This document shows positions 4,654-52,821 of a stretch of 64,000 nucleotides of DNA, in pieces. The notes under the pieces are model-generated. The model was not told the DNA's origin. It did no database searches and saw nothing but the letters and a program-made list of their open reading frames with translations. The stretch is from Patescibacteria group bacterium (GTDB taxonomy: Bacteria; Patescibacteriota; Patescibacteriia; UBA2196), in the NCBI GenBank assembly GCA_028748975.1, contig JAQTPI010000002.1, forward strand, positions 51,213-115,212, given 5' to 3'. The position numbers and the translations under genes are program-made. Positions within the stretch are counted from its first letter, which is position 1. Every line of letters starts with the position of its first letter.

Positions 4654-4987
4654 GCCACTTTCTTTGGACAAAGATTTTCTTTCGTTCTTTTTTTAGAAAA
4701 AAGAACCAAAAAAGCGCCGCTGGCAAAAAAGCTTCCACAAAATCGGCTGCGTCCTCGCTAAACCCGTTAACTCCTTGTTCCGCCTCTCCGCCGGCTGGCG
4801 GATCGGCGGAACTTCGTCAGACAGAAGCGGGTTTTTCAGCGCTGCGGCACTGAATCGCTCCGACTTAGCTCGATTTTGTCTGGAACCTTTTTTGAGGCGG
4901 CAGTCGCAACGACGGTTTATTTCTCGTGTTTTGTTAATTGTGTTTTGAGTTTTGTTTTAATGTTTTTATGTTTTAATGCTTTCATGG
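4654..4987. repeat. Element A copy 1 (about 330-nt structured intergenic repeat, candidate ncRNA)
   Basis: Collinear with 18890-19187. Begins gccactttctttggacaaagatttt. Helices gttccgcc/ggcggaac and ttcag/ctgaa are conserved with compensatory changes. Ends in gttttaatg(ttt)tatg motif. Confidence 0.6.
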
Positions 4988-5016
4988 TATAATAAAGTAA
5001 ATAATTGTGAATATCT

Positions 5017-6264
5017 ATGCTTAAAAATAAAACAAAAGACGCAACCTTAAGATTTCCCAAAGGTTTTCTTTGGGGTACGGCCACCGCCGCTCATCAGGTG
5101 GAGGGAAATAATATCAATTCCGATTGGTGGCAATATGAAGAACAGGGAAAAATACTTTATCGCTCTGGGCGTGCCTGTGACAGTTATAATCGTTTTAAAG
5201 ACGATCATGATTTGATTGAAAAAATGAATAATAATGTTTATCGCTTGTCAATTGAATGGGCGCGGATTGAACCGGAAAAGGGAAAATTTGATCATGAGGC
5301 GATGAAACATTACGTGGAAGTTCTTTCTGATTTGAAGAAACGCGAGATAAAAGTCATGCTGACGTTGCATCATTTTTCCAGTCCCACCTGGATCGCCGCT
5401 TTGGGCGGCTGGGCCAATCATTTTGTGGCTATTTATTATTTTCGGCGTTATGCCAAATTTGTTTTGGAAAATGTCGGCGGTTTGGTTGATTTTTGGGTAA
5501 CCATCAACGAACCGGGGGTTTATACCGACCAGGGTTATGATAAGGGCATCTGGCCACCCATGCAGGTTAATTACTGGAAGGCATTTTTGTGTTATGTTAA
5601 TATGGCGTTCGCTCATCGCTTGGTCTATCGCCTGATTCATAAGAAAATTCGAAACGCGCAAGTGGGTTTGGCCATGAATGTGATGTCTTTTGCTTCTTAC
5701 CGCAAACACAAGCTGATGGAACTTCTTTTTGTCCATTTTGCCGACCGCTTTGTTAACCATTCTTTTTATGATTTAACCAAACACAAGCATGATTTTTTAG
5801 GTATTAACTATTATTTTCGCGTGCGTCTCAAACAAAAAGGCCACAGTTTGGTGCCAGAAGTGGAAGACGTGACCGAAGGCGAACGCGAACTTTCCGATGT
5901 CGGCTGGCTGATTTATCCGCATGGGCTTTATGATGTTTTAATGGATTTGGCCGATTTTAAAGAGCCGATTTATATCACCGAAAACGGTATCGCGGCGGAA
6001 GATGATACTAAGCGTGAAAAATTTATAGTCAATCATCTGGCGGAAATTTATCACGCCATCAAAGGCGGGGTGGATGTGCGCGGTTATTTTCACTGGTCGC
6101 TACTTGATAATTTTGAATGGGAAAAAGGCTTTAGTCCAAAATTCGGTTTAGCCAGCGTTGACCATAAAACTTTTGAGCGCAAACTTAAACCCAGCGGAAT
6201 TTTATATGGCGAAATCGCTAAGAATAATTGCATTGCGGAGGAATTGGTGAAGAAATATCAGTAA
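5017..6264 (+). CDS. glycoside hydrolase family 1 (beta-glucosidase/beta-galactosidase type)
   Basis: Acid/base TINEP and nucleophile YITENG motifs of GH1. N-terminal FLWGTATAAHQVEG signature. Confidence 0.85.
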   Translation: MLKNKTKDATLRFPKGFLWGTATAAHQVEGNNINSDWWQYEEQGKILYRSGRACDSYNRFKDDHDLIEKMNNNVYRLSIEWARIEPEKGKFDHEAMKHYVEVLSDLKKREIKVMLTLHHFSSPTWIAALGGWANHFVAIYYFRRYAKFVLENVGGLVDFWVTINEPGVYTDQGYDKGIWPPMQVNYWKAFLCYVNMAFAHRLVYRLIHKKIRNAQVGLAMNVMSFASYRKHKLMELLFVHFADRFVNHSFYDLTKHKHDFLGINYYFRVRLKQKGHSLVPEVEDVTEGERELSDVGWLIYPHGLYDVLMDLADFKEPIYITENGIAAEDDTKREKFIVNHLAEIYHAIKGGVDVRGYFHWSLLDNFEWEKGFSPKFGLASVDHKTFERKLKPSGILYGEIAKNNCIAEELVKKYQ

Positions 6265-6397
6265 TTTTTATAAGCACCAAATCCCAAATTACAAAATACA
6301 AACAAATTTCAAATATCAAATTTCAAATTCTAAATAAATTGGCGCTCCGCGCCAACCGTTTGTAATTTGGTGCTTGTAATTTGTCATTTACTCTTTT

Positions 6398-7369
6398 ATG
6401 AGTTGGTTTCTCGTCGCCCTCATCGCTTACTTTCTAAACGCCGTTGCCATGACGGTGGATAAAACGCTTTTAAAAAAAGGCGGGATTAAAAATCCTGTCG
6501 TTTATACTTTTTATATCGCCGCTTTGGGTTCGGTTTTGATGCTTTTTGTAATTCCTTTTGGTTTTTTTGTGCCAGCAGTTATAACTGCCATCGCGGCGCT
6601 TATTTCCGGCGCGGTTTTTGCTTGGGCCTTGATTTTAATGTTTGACGCTTTAGGCAAAGATGACGCCACGCGCGTGACCGCGGCCATTGGCGGACTGGTG
6701 CCGGTTTTTGTTTTTATTTTGGCCTGGTTTGTTTTGGAAGAAGCGTTTTCCACGCGCCAAATAATTGCCGCCGTACTTTTAATTGCCGGCGCTTTTTTGA
6801 TGTCACTGGATTTTCAAACCCATGGCGCCCTGTCTTGGCTTAAAAAGAAATTGGGTTTAAGCCAAGGATTGATTTTGCCGCACATTCGCAAAGCGCTTTG
6901 GTTGGCGCTGCCTTCGGCCGCTCTTTTCGGCGTTTCTCATATTTTGACCAAATTTGTTTATAATAATACTACTTTTTTAAATGGTTTCATTTGGACGCGC
7001 CTGGGTTCTTTCGTGGTGGTGCTTTTGCTTTTATTTTCTGTTAAAAATCGCCGTGATCTGAAGAATAGTTTGAAAAGAAATAAAAAAGGAAAGTCCAGCG
7101 CGGAACAAAAAAAGTCCGGCTTGCGTTTTCTTTTTGGTCAGGCCTGCGGCGGGGCCTCCGCACTTTTACAACAGTATGCCATTTTTTTGGGTTCAGTGGC
7201 CTTGGTCAATGCTGTTTCCGGCGTGCAGTATGCCATAGTTTTCATTTTGGTTATCATTTTAACCAAAACCGCGCCGAAGCTCTTGAAAGAAAAATTGACA
7301 CGGGAGGTGGTGATTCAGAAAGTTTTGGCGATTATTATTATTGCCGCGGGACTTTATTTGATTAGATAG
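6398..7369 (+). CDS. polytopic membrane protein, EamA/DMT-like transporter
   Basis: About ten hydrophobic helices arranged as two halves. No catalytic motifs. Confidence 0.5.
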   Translation: MSWFLVALIAYFLNAVAMTVDKTLLKKGGIKNPVVYTFYIAALGSVLMLFVIPFGFFVPAVITAIAALISGAVFAWALILMFDALGKDDATRVTAAIGGLVPVFVFILAWFVLEEAFSTRQIIAAVLLIAGAFLMSLDFQTHGALSWLKKKLGLSQGLILPHIRKALWLALPSAALFGVSHILTKFVYNNTTFLNGFIWTRLGSFVVVLLLLFSVKNRRDLKNSLKRNKKGKSSAEQKKSGLRFLFGQACGGASALLQQYAIFLGSVALVNAVSGVQYAIVFILVIILTKTAPKLLKEKLTREVVIQKVLAIIIIAAGLYLIR

Positions 7370-46523: not shown

Positions 46524-47978
46524 ATGGATAAACAAAAACAAAAAAACTTAGGTGCTTTTTATACTCCCGTCAGCGCCGTAGAGTATATGGTTAGTAAACT
46601 GACTGGTTTTTGTGATAAAAGTAAATTATTAGAACCAAGCGGTGGTGATGGAGCTTTTGTTTCTGTAATTTTAAAGAGGGGATTACTAAAATCGGAACAA
46701 ATTACGGTTTGGGATATCAATCCGGAGGTTAAAAATTATATTGAAAATTTGGGCATAAAAAATATAGTAATAAAAGACACGCTTTTATCAACCAATTTTG
46801 CCAGTAATTCTCTCTTTAGAGGAGAATTATTTTCTCATATTATTGGCAACCCTCCGTATTTAAACAAACAAAGTGCTTATATAAAAAAGAATAAACACAG
46901 ATTAGGAGATCTTTTTAAAGAAATCGGTGCTAATGATACCTATGCCATGTTTTTATATTTAGGTTGTAAATTACTAGAAGAAAATGGCGAACTCTGTTTT
47001 ATTATCAGCGACACCTATTTGACTTTAGGAATTCATAAAAAGTTAAGAAAATTTTTATTAAAAAATTATACCATTAATGAAATCACGCTTTGTTCCAAAA
47101 AATTATTTAGAGATAGTGGTGCTTTGGTTAATACAAGTATAATTTATTTAACCAACAAAAAATCATCCGATAGCCACAAAATAATTTTTAATGATTGTCG
47201 AGAAAACGAAGCCGATAACTATATTGGTAAAAAATTTAAAACTATACAAAAAAATATTTTATCATACCCCGATTATGTTTTTGATTTTAATGGTGGGGCA
47301 AAATTACTTGGTAAAATAAACGAACTTAAAAAAATGGTAAGTCTTTTAGATGGTGGTCTAGGAATGCACACGACAGATAATAATGAATTTTTAGCCATTG
47401 TTGATTATGGTGGAAAAAAATATGCTAGCAATAATGGTATAAACAAGATTGTTTCTGCAACAGATATTGATGGGAAAAAATGGAAATTTTATCATAAAAA
47501 GGGTGGTAATAATAAATATTATCTACCGACCGAATATGCCATTCGTTGGGACAAAGAAGCGGTTTCTCACTACAAAATGCCTAAAAATTACGACATTGAT
47601 ATTAAAAGAATAGGATTTGTTGTTTCCGGCATTTGTTCAAACCTAACAGCCAGACTATCAACGCCCGGTGCTCTTTGGGAAAGCAATAAGGCTATGTGTT
47701 TTTTCCCAAAAGACCCTCAAAAATATCCGCCAGAACTTTTTGTCGGCGTTTTAAATAGTGATATTTATAACAAAATGATAAAGTTATTAAATCATACCAA
47801 TTCTTTACAAATTAGAGATATTAAAAAGTTACCCTGGCCTGATTTTACCAATGAAGATGTAAACAAAATAATAACAATCTCTAAAAATATAATTGCCAAA
47901 ATTAAAGAAAACATGGATTATAGTTTCAACGGAGAACAGGAAAAAATTAATCAAATTGTTAATAATTATTTTTTATAG
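46524..47978 (+). CDS. gamma-class N6-adenine DNA methyltransferase (TaqI/Eco57I-like)
   Basis: GAFYTP (motif X). EPSGGDGAF (motif I). NPPY (motif IV). C-terminal TRD-sized extension. Confidence 0.75.
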   Translation: MDKQKQKNLGAFYTPVSAVEYMVSKLTGFCDKSKLLEPSGGDGAFVSVILKRGLLKSEQITVWDINPEVKNYIENLGIKNIVIKDTLLSTNFASNSLFRGELFSHIIGNPPYLNKQSAYIKKNKHRLGDLFKEIGANDTYAMFLYLGCKLLEENGELCFIISDTYLTLGIHKKLRKFLLKNYTINEITLCSKKLFRDSGALVNTSIIYLTNKKSSDSHKIIFNDCRENEADNYIGKKFKTIQKNILSYPDYVFDFNGGAKLLGKINELKKMVSLLDGGLGMHTTDNNEFLAIVDYGGKKYASNNGINKIVSATDIDGKKWKFYHKKGGNNKYYLPTEYAIRWDKEAVSHYKMPKNYDIDIKRIGFVVSGICSNLTARLSTPGALWESNKAMCFFPKDPQKYPPELFVGVLNSDIYNKMIKLLNHTNSLQIRDIKKLPWPDFTNEDVNKIITISKNIIAKIKENMDYSFNGEQEKINQIVNNYFL

Positions 47979-47982
47979 AATT

Positions 47983-48864
47983 ATGAAAAACAGAAAAGTA
48001 AAATCAAATAGAGCCCAAGCCGATTATTTTGAGTTATTAGTTTGTCAATATATTTGCCACTTGTATAATGTCACATTTTCTTACAGTCAAGATTTGGCCA
48101 AGCTATCAAACAAGATCCTTGTTTTACCGGATGGCAAAGCGAGATTAAAACTACAAAATGATAATTTTATAAAAATACAGCCCAAAATCAAAGAGATTTT
48201 AGATTTTGAAATAGGTCAAAAAGGAAAAGTAATAAGCGTGGTTTGGGTTGGTAGAAATCTTTTAATTGAAACGACCTCCGATGTTGACGCCGAACACATT
48301 AATAAGCAAAAAACAAGGTTTTCCATTAAATCAATAGCCAGCACCGGCACTGGTACATTGAAAAATTTGGGTGCAAGACAAATCAAAAAATTTTTAGGAA
48401 TTGATTTTTCACGACAATATAACGAAATGTGGCGAAAACTAAGAGATCATTTAAAGGATTTTGATTTATCACAATCAAGACTGAAAAAGAAAGTGCAAAA
48501 AAATAAAAAATTATTGAAGTGGGCGACAGAAAACGGAAAAAAATATCAAACGAAATTAAATGAATTATGTCTTAATTCTTTTAATAAACTTTCTTTAAAG
48601 GAAAAGATTAATTTTCTTAATTATATTACTGACTGCAATGACGAGGATTTATATGTTATTATTGTAAATTCTGTCGACGTTATAATTTATAAACCGGTAG
48701 ATAAAAAATTAAAAATTATAAAGAATATAAAGGCCAAAAAAAATAATATGGCAGGTGCTGGTTACACAATTTATATTGACGATAAACCAACTTATCGCGT
48801 CCAAACCAACAACACAAATGGAATCGGCATCAGCGCTTATTGTCAAAGAATTTTCTGGATTTAA
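47983..48864 (+). CDS. hypothetical protein, candidate cognate restriction endonuclease
   Basis: Starts 5 nt after the MTase stop. No recognised motif. Assignment by position only. Confidence 0.3.
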   Translation: MKNRKVKSNRAQADYFELLVCQYICHLYNVTFSYSQDLAKLSNKILVLPDGKARLKLQNDNFIKIQPKIKEILDFEIGQKGKVISVVWVGRNLLIETTSDVDAEHINKQKTRFSIKSIASTGTGTLKNLGARQIKKFLGIDFSRQYNEMWRKLRDHLKDFDLSQSRLKKKVQKNKKLLKWATENGKKYQTKLNELCLNSFNKLSLKEKINFLNYITDCNDEDLYVIIVNSVDVIIYKPVDKKLKIIKNIKAKKNNMAGAGYTIYIDDKPTYRVQTNNTNGIGISAYCQRIFWI

Positions 48865-48961: not shown

Positions 48962-49828
48962 ATGAACAGTGAAGAATTTAAAAATCTCTATTCAATGCAA
49001 AGTTTGGATGAATCAATTACGCCGTTTACAAACAATGTTGGCTTTTCATTAATTCGCAAATATCCTGAAAATACAACCTATTTTAAAGACGGAAGAATGA
49101 TGTTTATTAAAGTTGCCATACTTGATGGAGGATTTTTTTACGGAGTGGATATGACTAAACCCGAAAAAAGAGGAGGAACAACCGATTATGTTATTGTTGA
49201 CGGAGAAGAATATAAGAAAAAAATTACAAATTTTTTTTCAAATGATAACGAATTTATATTTGATAATACGACTCAAAAAATAATTTATCAGCCGACAAAC
49301 AAAAGTTTTACGATGAACAAGTTTGTAGAAATTTTAGTAGCAAACCATCTTTCAGACAGACTATTCTTGAAGCGTATCTGGAACGAACTTGCTGATAGAA
49401 TTTTAAAATTTTTATTTTGGCTGTCAGATGCCCATTATGAACGAGCTCAGGTGATGATTGATAAATACGATTATGATAGGGGTGAAATTTTACCCCCAAA
49501 AGATGAAAAGAAAAATATTGAACCATTTTTTAAATATTTTTATATTTCAAAAAATATTTTGTTTTCAATTTTATTAATAACCTTTCCATCCGCCTTTTTT
49601 CTCGGTATTTATTGGGTACGCGGAGATTTTTCATTATCAAACCCAACTTTAGTTTTACTATTTTTTTTAATTTTATTTACATGCGAGAAATTGTCTATCT
49701 GGTTAGATAAAAAAATAAAAAAATTCCTTATACCACCAAAAGATCTCTTTACCGAGAAAAAAATAAACTTTATAGAAAAACTACACAATTATCAGTATCG
49801 AAACAATTTTCAGCTTAAAATAAACTAA
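48962..49828 (+). CDS. hypothetical protein with two C-terminal transmembrane helices
   Basis: Soluble N-terminal domain and hydrophobic C-terminus. Confidence 0.4.
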   Translation: MNSEEFKNLYSMQSLDESITPFTNNVGFSLIRKYPENTTYFKDGRMMFIKVAILDGGFFYGVDMTKPEKRGGTTDYVIVDGEEYKKKITNFFSNDNEFIFDNTTQKIIYQPTNKSFTMNKFVEILVANHLSDRLFLKRIWNELADRILKFLFWLSDAHYERAQVMIDKYDYDRGEILPPKDEKKNIEPFFKYFYISKNILFSILLITFPSAFFLGIYWVRGDFSLSNPTLVLLFFLILFTCEKLSIWLDKKIKKFLIPPKDLFTEKKINFIEKLHNYQYRNNFQLKIN

Positions 49829-49890: not shown

Positions 49891-50559
49891 ATGAACGAAA
49901 AAATATATTATCATTTTTTATCTTCAAAAAATGCAATTGATGATCTTGAGCAAAAAAGAATAAAAATTAGTTTAATAGATGAATTGAACGATCCATTTGA
50001 ATTATTGCCATATCTAAGATATAAAGAAGCTAAAAAAAGAAAAACCTATCACAACATTCGTAAAATAGTTTCAAAAAAATATGGTCTCCTGTGTTTTTCA
50101 AAAAAATGGGAGGAACCGCTTTTATGGGGGCACTATGCTGATAAACATCGGGGAATAGCAATAGGTTTTGAAATTTTAAAAGATAAAATATTGAGAGTAA
50201 AATATAATACTGTACCAAAAAGAATAGAATTTGAACTGACAAAAAATCAAGAAAAAAATATAAAATTATTTCTTGATTTGGCTAAAACAAAATATAAAGT
50301 ATGGTCATATGAAGAGGAATACAGAATATTAGTAGAACTTAATAATCGTAATGATGGTCATTATTTCATTCAGTTTGGAGATAGACTAAAAGTAAAAGAA
50401 ATAGTTTTGGGCTGTAATTTTGATAAAAAAAAGTACAAGAAGATAAAAAAATTAGCAAATCGATTACACGCCAAAGTTATACCAACTAGACAAGGCTGGG
50501 AAGATTACAAAATACGCCAATGTGGAACGAAAACTAAAGAATTTCAAAATATAAAATAA
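49891..50559 (+). CDS. DUF2971-like protein
   Basis: YHFLS...LNDPFE motif recalled as characteristic of DUF2971. Confidence 0.45.
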   Translation: MNEKIYYHFLSSKNAIDDLEQKRIKISLIDELNDPFELLPYLRYKEAKKRKTYHNIRKIVSKKYGLLCFSKKWEEPLLWGHYADKHRGIAIGFEILKDKILRVKYNTVPKRIEFELTKNQEKNIKLFLDLAKTKYKVWSYEEEYRILVELNNRNDGHYFIQFGDRLKVKEIVLGCNFDKKKYKKIKKLANRLHAKVIPTRQGWEDYKIRQCGTKTKEFQNIK

Positions 50560-50757
50560 TTTCCTCCGCCGCGCCGCGGAAAAAAACGGAGCAGAAAAAC
50601 GGAGCAGGGGATTGTCAAATTTAAAAATCAAAACCCCAAACCCTAATCCTTGGTTAATTTAGCTATAGCTAATTTAACCAAGGATTGAAAAACAGTAAAA
50701 TTAATAATGTTTGATTAATTCTGCTATAGCAAATTTAATCAAAGATTGAAAAAATAA
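50560..50757. repeat. Intergenic module R1 with 36-bp near-perfect palindrome (50648-50683) and second palindrome (50710-50744)
   Basis: tttcctccgccgcgccgcgg leader. ccttggttaatttagctatagctaatttaaccaagg. tttgattaattctgctatagcaaatttaatcaaag. Confidence 0.7.
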
Positions 50758-50923
50758 GCGGGGAGCAGACCTTTGTCAAAACTGGTTGCCCCGCTTTTTG
50801 TTTTGGGAGCTTATTTTTAAGTATAATCTAATTATAGACAAGTACAATACCCTTGTCAATTTTTTGTCAAGTCCAAATTTGACAAATTACCTTCACTGGA
50901 TGTATAATTAAGTTATCCACAAT

Positions 50924-51676
50924 ATGGCTATCCATAAAACCCAAACAAAGCTCCTGGAATTGGCCGAAAAACAAAATTTGGCTGGTTTAACTTTGCGCAA
51001 AATAGGGGAATTAATCGGCGAACCAAACAGCCCGCAAAAAATTAAACACCACCTCAACAAACTCTTTGAAAAGGGCTTATTAGTTAACAGTCTTGATAAC
51101 AAAAAAATAAGCAAAACTTCCACCGGCTTTAATTCCGAGATGAAATTAATTTCCTTGCCAATTTACGGCTCGGCCAACTGCGGCCAGGCTTTGGAATTGG
51201 CTGATGACAAAATTCAGGGCTATTTAAAAATTTCTCCCTCGATTCTAAAAGAAAAATTTAGAAAAAAAATAAAAGATTTGTATATTCTCAAAGCCATTGG
51301 CTATTCCATGAACCGCGCCAATATCAACAACAACAATATTGAACATGGTGATTATTTGATTATTGATAAAAGCCAAAATGTTCCCGAAGACAACGATTAT
51401 GTCGTTTCCGTCATCGATGGCGCGGCCAATATTAAAAAGTTTTATTCAGATAAAAAAAATCAAAGAATAATTTTAAAATCGGAATCAACTAATGATTTCG
51501 CGCCGATTTATATTCATGCCAACGATCTGGAACAATATGCGATTTGCGGCAAAGTCATTGATGTTTTAAAAGAACCCGAGGATTTTAATGACTGGCAAGA
51601 CGCCGGTTTGTCTGACACTTTGAAAGCGCTTGGTCCAATGAGCGATGAAGAACACAACTACTACATGAATTTATGA
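50924..51676 (+). CDS. LexA-like repressor (winged HTH + S24 peptidase domain)
   Basis: N-terminal LexA-type wHTH. AIGYSM (Ser nucleophile) and downstream Lys (NIKKF). Length 250 aa. Confidence 0.7.
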   Translation: MAIHKTQTKLLELAEKQNLAGLTLRKIGELIGEPNSPQKIKHHLNKLFEKGLLVNSLDNKKISKTSTGFNSEMKLISLPIYGSANCGQALELADDKIQGYLKISPSILKEKFRKKIKDLYILKAIGYSMNRANINNNNIEHGDYLIIDKSQNVPEDNDYVVSVIDGAANIKKFYSDKKNQRIILKSESTNDFAPIYIHANDLEQYAICGKVIDVLKEPEDFNDWQDAGLSDTLKALGPMSDEEHNYYMNL

Positions 51677-52011
51677 AACAAAAAGAAATTTGGATCGTTA
51701 AATATCCGGACGACGCGGCCGGCCATGAATATAAAAAAGAAAGGCCTGGTTTGATAATTGAATCTGACCAACAAATACAAAAAACCAACATCTTTACGGT
51801 GGTGCCTTTAACTTCCAATTTAAGCAACGTAACGGCCGACGATATTTTAATAAAAAAAGACCAGGAAAATAATCTTTTTGCCAATTCAGTTTTAAAAACA
51901 CACCACATCCAATCTTTTGATCGTTCTCGCTTTATCAAAGGAATTGGTAAAATTAACGAAAACACGTTGGAAAAAGTAAAAACATACCTCAAAAAACATT
52001 TCGATTTATAA
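51673..52011 (+). CDS. MazF/PemK-family endoribonuclease toxin
   Basis: KERPGLIIESD ... NIFTVVPLTSN ... IQSFDRSRF PemK signature. ATGA stop/start overlap with the upstream gene. Confidence 0.75.
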   Translation: MKQKEIWIVKYPDDAAGHEYKKERPGLIIESDQQIQKTNIFTVVPLTSNLSNVTADDILIKKDQENNLFANSVLKTHHIQSFDRSRFIKGIGKINENTLEKVKTYLKKHFDL

Positions 52012-52098
52012 CCCTATTGCTTTTCTAAGTTGACTAACCATCATTTTTTTTATTCCCGGTTTAGTGCTAAAATTAAACCATCATAACCACCACAAAAA

Positions 52099-52285
52099 TT
52101 TCCTCCGCCGCGCCGCGGAAAAAAACGGAGCAGAAAAAACAGAGCAGGGGATTAAAAAAATTAAAATAATTAAATCCCCAAATCCTTGGTTAATTTAGCT
52201 ATAGCTAATTTAACCAAGGATTGAAAAACAGTAAAATTAATAATGTTTGATTAAATTTGCTATAGCAGAATTAATCAAACATTAA
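52099..52285. repeat. Intergenic module R2 (palindromes at 52184-52219 and 52244-52280)
   Basis: Same leader and palindromes as R1. Confidence 0.7.
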
Positions 52286-52345
52286 AAATAACATAAAAAA
52301 ATCATATTCTCTAATTCGCGCGAATAGGCGAATAGTTAAAAAAAC

Positions 52346-52684
52346 ATGCAAAAATATCAAAAAATATTTTGGGCGATTATTATTCTTATAGCCGTGACCG
52401 CACCAATAATTGTTTTGGCACTCCAGCCACCAGGCGAAAGAGTGGCCGGAGTAACCATTTTACCCCAAGCCAAACACTCCTTTGCCTATATTTTTTCTAC
52501 CTATAAGATACATTTCTTCTTTTTAGTGATATTAGCTATTTTATTAATAACTCCCCTTGATTTTGTCAAAAGAGAAAAAGTTATTAAAATAATTTTTTTA
52601 AGCATCTTTCTAATTCTTCTTGTGCTGACCGGTAAGACTTTGTATACCGATATGACCATGCCCACTATTATAATTTATCAATAA
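52346..52684 (+). CDS. small polytopic membrane protein
   Basis: Three hydrophobic helices. Confidence 0.4.
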   Translation: MQKYQKIFWAIIILIAVTAPIIVLALQPPGERVAGVTILPQAKHSFAYIFSTYKIHFFFLVILAILLITPLDFVKREKVIKIIFLSIFLILLVLTGKTLYTDMTMPTIIIYQ

Positions 52685-52687
52685 GTA

Positions 52688-52812
52688 TTTCCTCCGCTGC
52701 GGCGCGGCGCAAAAAAACGAAAAAAAAACGGAGCAGGGGACTAAAAAAATTAAAATAATCCAAAACCCTAATCCTTGGTTAATTTAGCTATAGCTAAATT
52801 AACCAAGGATTT
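52688..52812. repeat. Intergenic module R3 (perfect 36-bp palindrome 52773-52808)
   Basis: ccttggttaatttagctatagctaaattaaccaagg. Confidence 0.7.
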
Positions 52813-52821
52813 AAAAAATAT

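Follow-up and report, generated by a model that had tools for sequence, protein, structure and literature searches.

A LexA-type repressor with a putative toxin-neutralising tail, coupled to a predicted MazF-family toxin in Patescibacteria

A two-gene operon encoding a LexA-type repressor and a predicted toxin of the PemK/MazF family has been analysed in a Patescibacteria group bacterium (UBA2196; assembly GCA_028748975.1), within a stretch of 64,000 nt (contig JAQTPI010000002.1, positions 51,213-115,212) that is referred to here as the window and to which all coordinates relate. The upstream gene, lexA-long (open reading frame (ORF) A, 50924-51676, plus strand), encodes 250 amino acids (aa) comprising a winged helix-turn-helix (wHTH) domain, a cleavage loop, an S24 domain and a C-terminal tail, while the downstream gene, mazF (ORF B, 51673-52011, plus strand), encodes 112 aa. 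The two genes have an ATGA in common at 51673-51676, so that the overlap proposed in a first-pass annotation of the sequence is exact, and translation of the toxin is predicted to be coupled to that of the repressor. The favoured interpretation, to which a probability of roughly 0.6 is assigned, is that the pair forms a type II toxin-antitoxin operon, with the lineage's own LexA taking the place of the antitoxin, its tail neutralising MazF and the toxin being released upon DNA damage. The first-pass annotation had considered either an antitoxin inactivated by its own RecA- or pH-stimulated proteolysis or the SOS repressor of the organism co-transcribed with a toxin under its control. With the lineage's own LexA in the antitoxin slot these two proposals merge; both roles are retained as those of a single protein, and only their separation into alternatives has been abandoned.

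Domain Structure of the LexA Protein

Profile searches and structure prediction agree on the assignment of ORF A to a wHTH and S24 protein, as had been proposed from its motifs. The sole Pfam match above the cut-off is Peptidase_S24 (E = 9.6e-15, aa 79-212), and the NCBIfam lexA model TIGR00498 aligns with aa 23-216 at 61.7 bits, a score that misses the equivalog cut-off of 110.95. A profile composed of ORF A and 32 homologues (33 sequences, all of them tailed, on which residue conservation was counted) retrieved E. coli LexA from the PDB at 2.4e-10. In this alignment A84-G85 of the E. coli protein correspond to C86-G87 of ORF A, S119 to S128 within the expected GYSM motif, and K156 to K171 within NIKK, the downstream lysine. 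The predicted self-cleavage site Cys86-Gly87 (tgc ggc) is thus encoded at 51179-51184, the predicted catalytic Ser128 at 51305-51307 and the predicted catalytic Lys171 (ANIKK) at 51434-51436, all on the plus strand. None of the 33 homologues departs from N85, C86, S128 or K171, and at least 90% of them keep G87, from which it follows that self-cleavage is probably maintained. UmuD is likewise cleaved at a Cys-Gly bond.

The AlphaFold2 (AF2) model of LexA-long has a mean predicted local distance difference test (pLDDT) score of 80 and places a winged-helix DNA-binding domain at aa 1-64 (50924-51115, plus strand), followed by an S24 beta fold at 75-215. Helices are predicted at 5-16, 24-30 and 37-49 and wing strands at 53-55 and 62-64, with the recognition helix SPQKIKHH (S36-H43) being invariant in the tailed homologues. 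When the model was used in a Foldseek search, the top matches were full-length LexA structures from Thermotoga maritima and E. coli (E = 5e-11). Taken from profile and model evidence, ORF A is a LexA orthologue with a complete predicted self-cleavage apparatus, and appears to represent a divergent, lineage-specific LexA family to which a tail has been added.

The MazF Toxin

The RPGLII and VVPLTSN motifs, from which a PemK/MazF toxin had been recognised downstream of the repressor, were found in ORF B, and the profile search extended the assignment over the entire protein: PemK_toxin (PF02452) matches at E = 3.5e-20 over positions 1-109 of the 109 in the profile, with M. tuberculosis MazF9 as the closest solved structure (1e-7). 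Arg24 (ERPG) and Thr47 (PLTSN) align with R25 and T48 of B. subtilis MazF, which we take to be catalytic positions, and the Arg and Thr at these positions are kept in about 30 of 34 MazF partners. ORF B is therefore predicted to be a full-length PemK/MazF-family endoribonuclease toxin.

MazF toxins are usually partnered by antitoxins of the AbrB or ribbon-helix-helix (RHH) type. No separate MazE-like ORF, which would have spoken against the first-pass annotation, was recognised between, within or beside the two genes. There is no room for a MazE gene between lexA and mazF, as the genes overlap, and a Pfam search at E <= 1 of the small ORFs at 50786-50911, 52064-52198, 51245-51376 (minus strand) and 51514-51657 (minus strand) yielded nothing. 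A hidden MazE at the locus was ruled out on these grounds.

Recurrence of the Pair and the C-Terminal Tail

The ORF A profile has 231 homologues at E <= 0.001, the best 120 of which are nearly all 245-254 aa in length and derive from Patescibacteria. For ORF B 36 homologues were found, many of which appear to share a contig with a LexA homologue. A genome scan covering one genome per species (GTDB) was performed with two peptide patterns, one of them the SPQKIKHH recognition helix, and the best 80 loci (L001-L080), tail-less forms included, were retained; ORFs were called in each and searched with hidden Markov models (HMMs) of the LexA and MazF families. Two LexA forms occur in these loci, with and without a conserved C-terminal tail. 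Tailed proteins are about 245-250 aa long and have the tail consensus KKPDE......A.A.D.LK.LGP.SKEE..YY.NL, in which the position after LGP is I or M. A MazF gene directly follows tailed lexA in 33 of the 35 assessable loci (34 of 36 when the window is counted), with the four-nucleotide ATGA overlap at 25 of 34 lexA-mazF junctions. Among the 43 lexA genes without the MazF-type tail (39 short forms, mostly of about 206-239 aa, and four with a different tail), MazF is present within 4 kb in none. The association between tail and MazF gives p = 5e-20 by Fisher's exact test, a value in which shared ancestry is ignored. The pair thus recurs in 33 other species-level genomes and in many metagenome contigs, and is not a chance pairing. 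A single origin of the tailed form was considered and not relied on, a crude neighbour-joining tree having split tailed LexA into two or three clades.

Loci in which the toxin has been altered or lost are also informative. MazF is N-terminally truncated in two loci (L001 and L033) and C-terminally truncated in another (L037), and carries an Arg-to-Cys replacement in a fourth (L038). One tailed lexA (L023) has no gene downstream, and in another locus (L008) the tail is kept and a Bro-N gene (4757-5563) replaces MazF. In all six lexA is intact, as would be expected of a LexA that is required in its own right and additionally acts as the antitoxin. The Bro-N gene of L008 presumably resembles E. 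coli DinD. As a separate observation, a Bro-N gene (6067-6909) was also found after lexA-mazF and upstream of xseA, xseB and ruvA in a further contig (L083); the Bro-N genes following lexA in these two loci fit an SOS-type operon context.

The tail itself comprises aa 216-250 (KEPEDFNDWQDAGLSDTLKALGPMSDEEHNYYMNL; 51569-51673, plus strand) and lies outside the alignment with LexA structures, where E. coli LexA stops at profile position 217 and the ORF A family extends for about 33 further residues. AF2 predicts two low-confidence helices in it, at 222-236 and 241-249 (pLDDT 52-66), and low confidence outside the LexA fold would be expected of a region that folds on binding. Comparison with Pfam gave no credible family, and comparison with the PDB gave nothing better than E = 0.13 and no solved MazE or other antitoxin.

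A profile restricted to the tail (36 columns) was run against 1.84 billion representative proteins and matched 151. Besides LexA fragments, the matches include unrelated proteins that carry this tail at their C-terminus: a RelB-family protein (P0169, Pfam RelB at 8e-11), an 86-aa protein with an N-terminus that is RHH-like by eye and has no Pfam match (P0208), an Xre-type helix-turn-helix (HTH) protein (P0228) and six HTH+Panacea proteins of about 280 aa (P0231, P0248, P0254, P0284, P0296 and P0299). The gene context of these four partner types was inspected on five contigs (L087, L089, L091, L092 and L093), and in all of them the tail gene is ATGA-coupled to a PemK gene. With E-values of 1e-48 to 1e-56, the products of these PemK genes are matched over their full length by the HMM built for the MazF subfamily of the window. 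All scaffolds have a near-identical end, ...LGP[IM]SKEE..YY.NL*, followed by the ATGA. Tail and MazF are constant while the DNA-binding scaffold is variable, as is characteristic of a region that neutralises a toxin. The tail would accordingly be a portable module travelling with MazF and, most plausibly, its neutralising element, and the tailed LexA very probably holds MazF in check.

The same data bear on a purely transcriptional explanation, by which LexA represses mazF as an SOS gene, the tail serves in oligomerisation or as a degradation tag, and MazF is otherwise checked or weakly toxic. LexA-repressed toxins without a protein antitoxin do exist, with tisB and symE of E. coli as examples. 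The tail, however, tracks MazF on five unrelated scaffolds and always forms the last residues before the ATGA junction; moreover, a coupled and predicted catalytically intact RNase without an inhibitor would be hard to maintain in at least 30 lineages. This explanation is considered very improbable.

Two groups of tail-bearing proteins deserve separate mention. In one HTH+Panacea example (L087, 2162-3004) the gene lies upstream of the same MazF subfamily, and it may be the short tail, and not the Panacea domain, that neutralises MazF in proteins of this type. In addition, dozens of predicted proteins of 38-60 aa consist of little beyond the tail (P0161, P0162, P0168, P0171 and others; L090 and L094), and could be minimal antitoxins devoid of a DNA-binding domain, or remnants. 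A LexA sub-clade with another tail (..PEEF.DSSA..ILKYGKPI.KVDY..KKKK) was detected in four loci (L028, 3660-5312; L029, 3878-5793; L032, 3977-5841; L036, 3896-4735), in three of which KilA-N, Bro-N or RhuM-family genes, not MazF, lie downstream. LexA tails may thus be partner-specific more generally.

Lineage LexA or Accessory Repressor

Several findings place the tailed protein within the LexA family of the lineage. Tailed and tail-less forms are retrieved by the same recognition-helix pattern; recA lies divergently upstream of lexA in six tail-less loci, and xseA-xseB-ruvA or holA is found near tailed ones. Among the best 80 loci, tailed and tail-less copies never occur together in a genome; a second copy is present in one genome only (L037 and L040), where the two genes are near-identical and both of the tailed type. 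A search of IMG/VR (2.9 million viral contigs) gave four weak LexA-family matches, none of them tailed, and on account of this near-absence a phage origin of LexA-long was rejected. Judged from these comparisons, LexA-long is a member of the one LexA family that Patescibacteria have, and not a phage repressor.

An alternative is that the LexA-like gene is a defence-island paralogue within a mobile toxin-antitoxin or defence module, with a housekeeping LexA encoded elsewhere in the genome. The setting lends itself to this view, since a low-GC stretch of approximately 46.0-52.8 kb (27-35% GC vs about 42% elsewhere), which carries a type II methylase and a PDC-S31 gene, has the pair at its right edge, and repeats of about 190 nt flank the pair; in relatives, restriction-modification genes recur upstream and the flanking genes differ. 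Nonetheless, lexA-mazF stays constant in those relatives while the upstream island genes vary, and the protein shares its recognition helix, and the gene its upstream motifs, with tail-less lexA beside recA. The lack of any genome with both forms among the best 80 loci, the near-absence of the family from viral contigs and the survival of lexA after MazF loss likewise count against a mobile paralogue, which is regarded as improbable.

Promoter and Upstream Motifs

A single sigma-70 promoter precedes the operon (50879-50908, plus strand), consisting of TTGACA, an 18-nt spacer and TATAAT, with 12 of 12 consensus positions matched. Three TGTCAA/TTGACA hexamers (at 50854, 50865 and 50879) form an array at 50854-50884 that overlaps the -35 box and is a candidate operator; it is the only intergenic cluster of three such hexamers in the window. 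Within 130 nt upstream of lexA in 81 loci, the hexamer occurs at 10 per kb vs 0.76 per kb in the background, a 13-fold enrichment, and the arrays are common to tailed and tail-less forms. No hexamer was found at repair-gene promoters within the 64-kb window.

Other features of this region have been noted. A second perfect sigma-70 promoter (50831-50859, minus strand; TTGACA, 17-nt spacer, TATAAT) is situated back to back with that of lexA and points left into a repeat element where no convincing ORF is present; it could drive a small RNA, or could belong to the operator architecture. A perfect DnaA-box nonamer (TTATCCACA) is located at 50913-50921, with 2 nt separating it from the start codon of lexA. 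Of the 81 regions upstream of lexA that were compared, 14 contain an exact DnaA box (1.15 per kb vs 0.04 per kb in the background) and 40 contain a box with at most one mismatch. These counts hint that DnaA acts on the expression of lexA in Patescibacteria, or that a half-site for LexA resembles the DnaA box.

Proposed Mechanism

In the proposed mechanism, the tail would act on the MazF dimer like the C-terminal region of MazE, binding and neutralising it, and LexA would repress its own promoter, so that the operon would be autoregulated like a normal toxin-antitoxin operon. Upon DNA damage, RecA filaments would stimulate self-cleavage of LexA at C86-G87, leading to derepression of the operon, and cleavage would destabilise the fragment carrying the S24 domain and the tail, by analogy with the fragments of E. 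coli LexA. MazF, once freed, would cut RNA and halt growth until LexA has been replenished. Such a system could serve as a DNA-damage checkpoint, or as an abortive response to phage or DNA injury. Binding of the tail to MazF, RecA-stimulated cleavage and release of MazF after cleavage are the inferred steps of this scheme.

A number of observations weigh against this interpretation. Self-cleavage removes the wHTH domain and not the tail, and cleavage alone need not free MazF. Since LexA would be cut between its wHTH and S24 domains, the tail would remain on the C-terminal fragment, and release of MazF would therefore require degradation of that fragment, which makes this the weakest step of the mechanism. 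The Fisher test ignores shared ancestry, and the tailed forms fall into two or three clades in the crude tree. The location at a low-GC defence-island edge and the flanking repeats also fit a mobile or defence role, and recA was not found within the 64-kb window. Lastly, 42 of 50 forward hexamers pair with a -10 box (4/6 or better) and are mostly -35 boxes, for which reason the hexamer is not claimed as a LexA box.

The position of the cleavage site is also the starting point of the main rival explanation, compared with which the defence-island paralogue and the purely transcriptional control fit the data less well. It holds that the tail neutralises MazF while LexA contributes only a dimeric DNA-binding scaffold and a promoter, with release occurring through turnover of the tail by Lon/Clp or through loss of the operon (addiction), and not through damage. 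The site at aa 86-87 is far from the tail at aa 216-250, leaving the S24 domain and the tail on one fragment; the tail and MazF unit is also found on scaffolds without a protease domain, and MazF copies decay while lexA persists, as in the turnover of selfish toxin-antitoxin systems. Against it stand the cleavage site and Ser/Lys dyad, which are invariant in the 33 aligned tailed forms (at least 90% for G87). In addition, E. coli LexA fragments are quickly degraded, and degradation of this kind would take the tail along. In E. coli both fragments are removed after cleavage by ClpXP/Lon. A scaffold role without damage-dependent release is hence judged unlikely, and damage-triggered release from a tailed LexA is preferred.

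Genomic Setting

The window is otherwise ordinary chromosome, encoding PBP2, MreB, SecA, Ddl, MnmA, acetate kinase, PFOR, PPDK, RecJ, LysRS and SerRS. Upstream of lexA-mazF, the low-GC island contains an Eco57I-type type II DNA methylase (46524-47978), two ORFs without known function (47893-48864 and 48962-49828) and a DUF2971/PDC-S31 candidate defence gene (49891-50559). PADLOC has no model for LexA-long or for MazF, and among the compared loci no synteny is conserved beyond the lexA-mazF pair itself. The position upstream of the pair is occupied by other restriction-modification genes (MmeI-type) in relatives (L081, 1875-5234; L085 and L086, 1-1571) and in five GTDB loci; it may be a recurrent integration hotspot, or may be functionally linked to the operon.

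The repeat of about 190 nt is present in three copies (50562-50752, 52098-52288 and 52687-52817), which flank lexA-mazF and a small membrane ORF (52346-52684) and resemble cassette boundaries; it is absent from the rest of the window and from 88 other loci. The repeat begins directly after a stop codon and comprises a GC-rich hairpin and two near-perfect AT-rich palindromes of 42 nt, one of them CCTTGGTTAATTTAGCTATAGCTAATTTAACCAAGG and the other related to it. Folding of the repeat as RNA gives z = -9, and an Rfam search of the flanking repeats gave no family, with sub-threshold matches to miRNA hairpins only. At the other end of the window, an ORF at 1-1950 has matches to coupling proteins of the TrwB/TraG type and to HerA-like ATPases, and contains a zinc finger. 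Its product is predicted to be an ATPase of the conjugation or DNA-transfer type, encoded here on a chromosome of Patescibacteria.

Relation to Known Systems and Significance

The operon shares several properties with the MazEF, PemIK and Kis-Kid systems, such as those of E. coli, B. subtilis (EndoA-EndoAI) and M. tuberculosis (MazEF9). These have in common an antitoxin-first, translationally coupled bicistron, here with a single upstream promoter, as well as a PemK-fold toxin with Arg and Thr at the positions taken to be catalytic. Their antitoxins also combine an N-terminal DNA-binding domain with a poorly ordered C-terminal region, which is the candidate toxin binder in LexA-long. The differences lie in the antitoxin: a full LexA, with wHTH and self-cleaving S24 domains, occurs in place of an AbrB or RHH protein, and its tail is unlike any solved MazE. 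LexA-long has neither the AbrB/SpoVT nor the RHH fold of MazE, its sole Pfam match being Peptidase_S24, and would thus work like MazE without being a member of that family. Removal of the antitoxin could here be self-inflicted and RecA-gated, beyond the action of Lon/Clp alone.

Toxin systems repressed by LexA include dinJ-yafQ, yafNO, tisB/istR, symER and hokE of E. coli and higBA of Caulobacter. They likewise link DNA damage to toxin expression through LexA, which acts in trans and is accompanied by a distinct protein or RNA antitoxin, whereas in the operon described here LexA is encoded within the operon and bears the putative neutralising element. Lethal genes may also be controlled by LexA-like repressors, such as AlpR of the P. 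aeruginosa alpBCDE genes, PrtR of the PrtN-dependent pyocins, phage CI and SetR of SXT. There, too, a function that arrests growth or kills is placed under a self-cleaving S24 repressor and responds to DNA damage, but control is transcriptional only and the repressors are accessory paralogues, in contrast to a lineage LexA with an apparent protein-level antitoxin module. The Panacea (PanA/SocA) antitoxins provide a parallel for one toxin family being served by interchangeable antitoxin architectures; here, however, the element common to the architectures is a short C-terminal tail and not the Panacea domain.

We know of no modular antitoxin for which LexA has served as scaffold. No LexA-MazF operon or LexA-type antitoxin was found in the searchable full-text literature, and an earlier mention is possible in work on the SOS network of Patescibacteria, a subject reportedly treated by Sanchez-Osuna, Barbe and Erill in 2017. 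In a Campylobacter survey, a database tool labelled an S24-LexA-like domain as the antitoxin of an Xre/HipA pair, which was treated as an unverified prediction (PMC7826846). A more far-reaching proposal, held tentatively and at somewhat below even odds, is that the master SOS repressor of these bacteria doubles as an antitoxin, the first known that would destroy itself in response to a defined signal and would thereby release MazF as an inbuilt DNA-damage checkpoint or suicide switch; that, conversely, MazF bound to the tail could serve as a co-repressor and tune the entire SOS regulon; and that a mobile tail and MazF cassette would capture any DNA-binding protein by 3' fusion.

The activation of type II toxins is disputed, the usual model of stress-induced antitoxin degradation by Lon/Clp being hard to demonstrate. 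If the present interpretation is correct, a LexA-based antitoxin would bring with it a protease gated by a signal, the trigger of which (RecA on single-stranded DNA) is well understood, making the activation step of the toxin directly testable. A selfish unit of toxin and tail could, in addition, attach itself to a core regulator, and the tail, as a candidate inhibitor of MazF, would constitute a new motif, both short and portable, that accompanies the toxin. DNA damage would then be linked directly to toxin release in Patescibacteria, and the operon would offer a first functional handle on the stress responses of these mostly uncultured bacteria.

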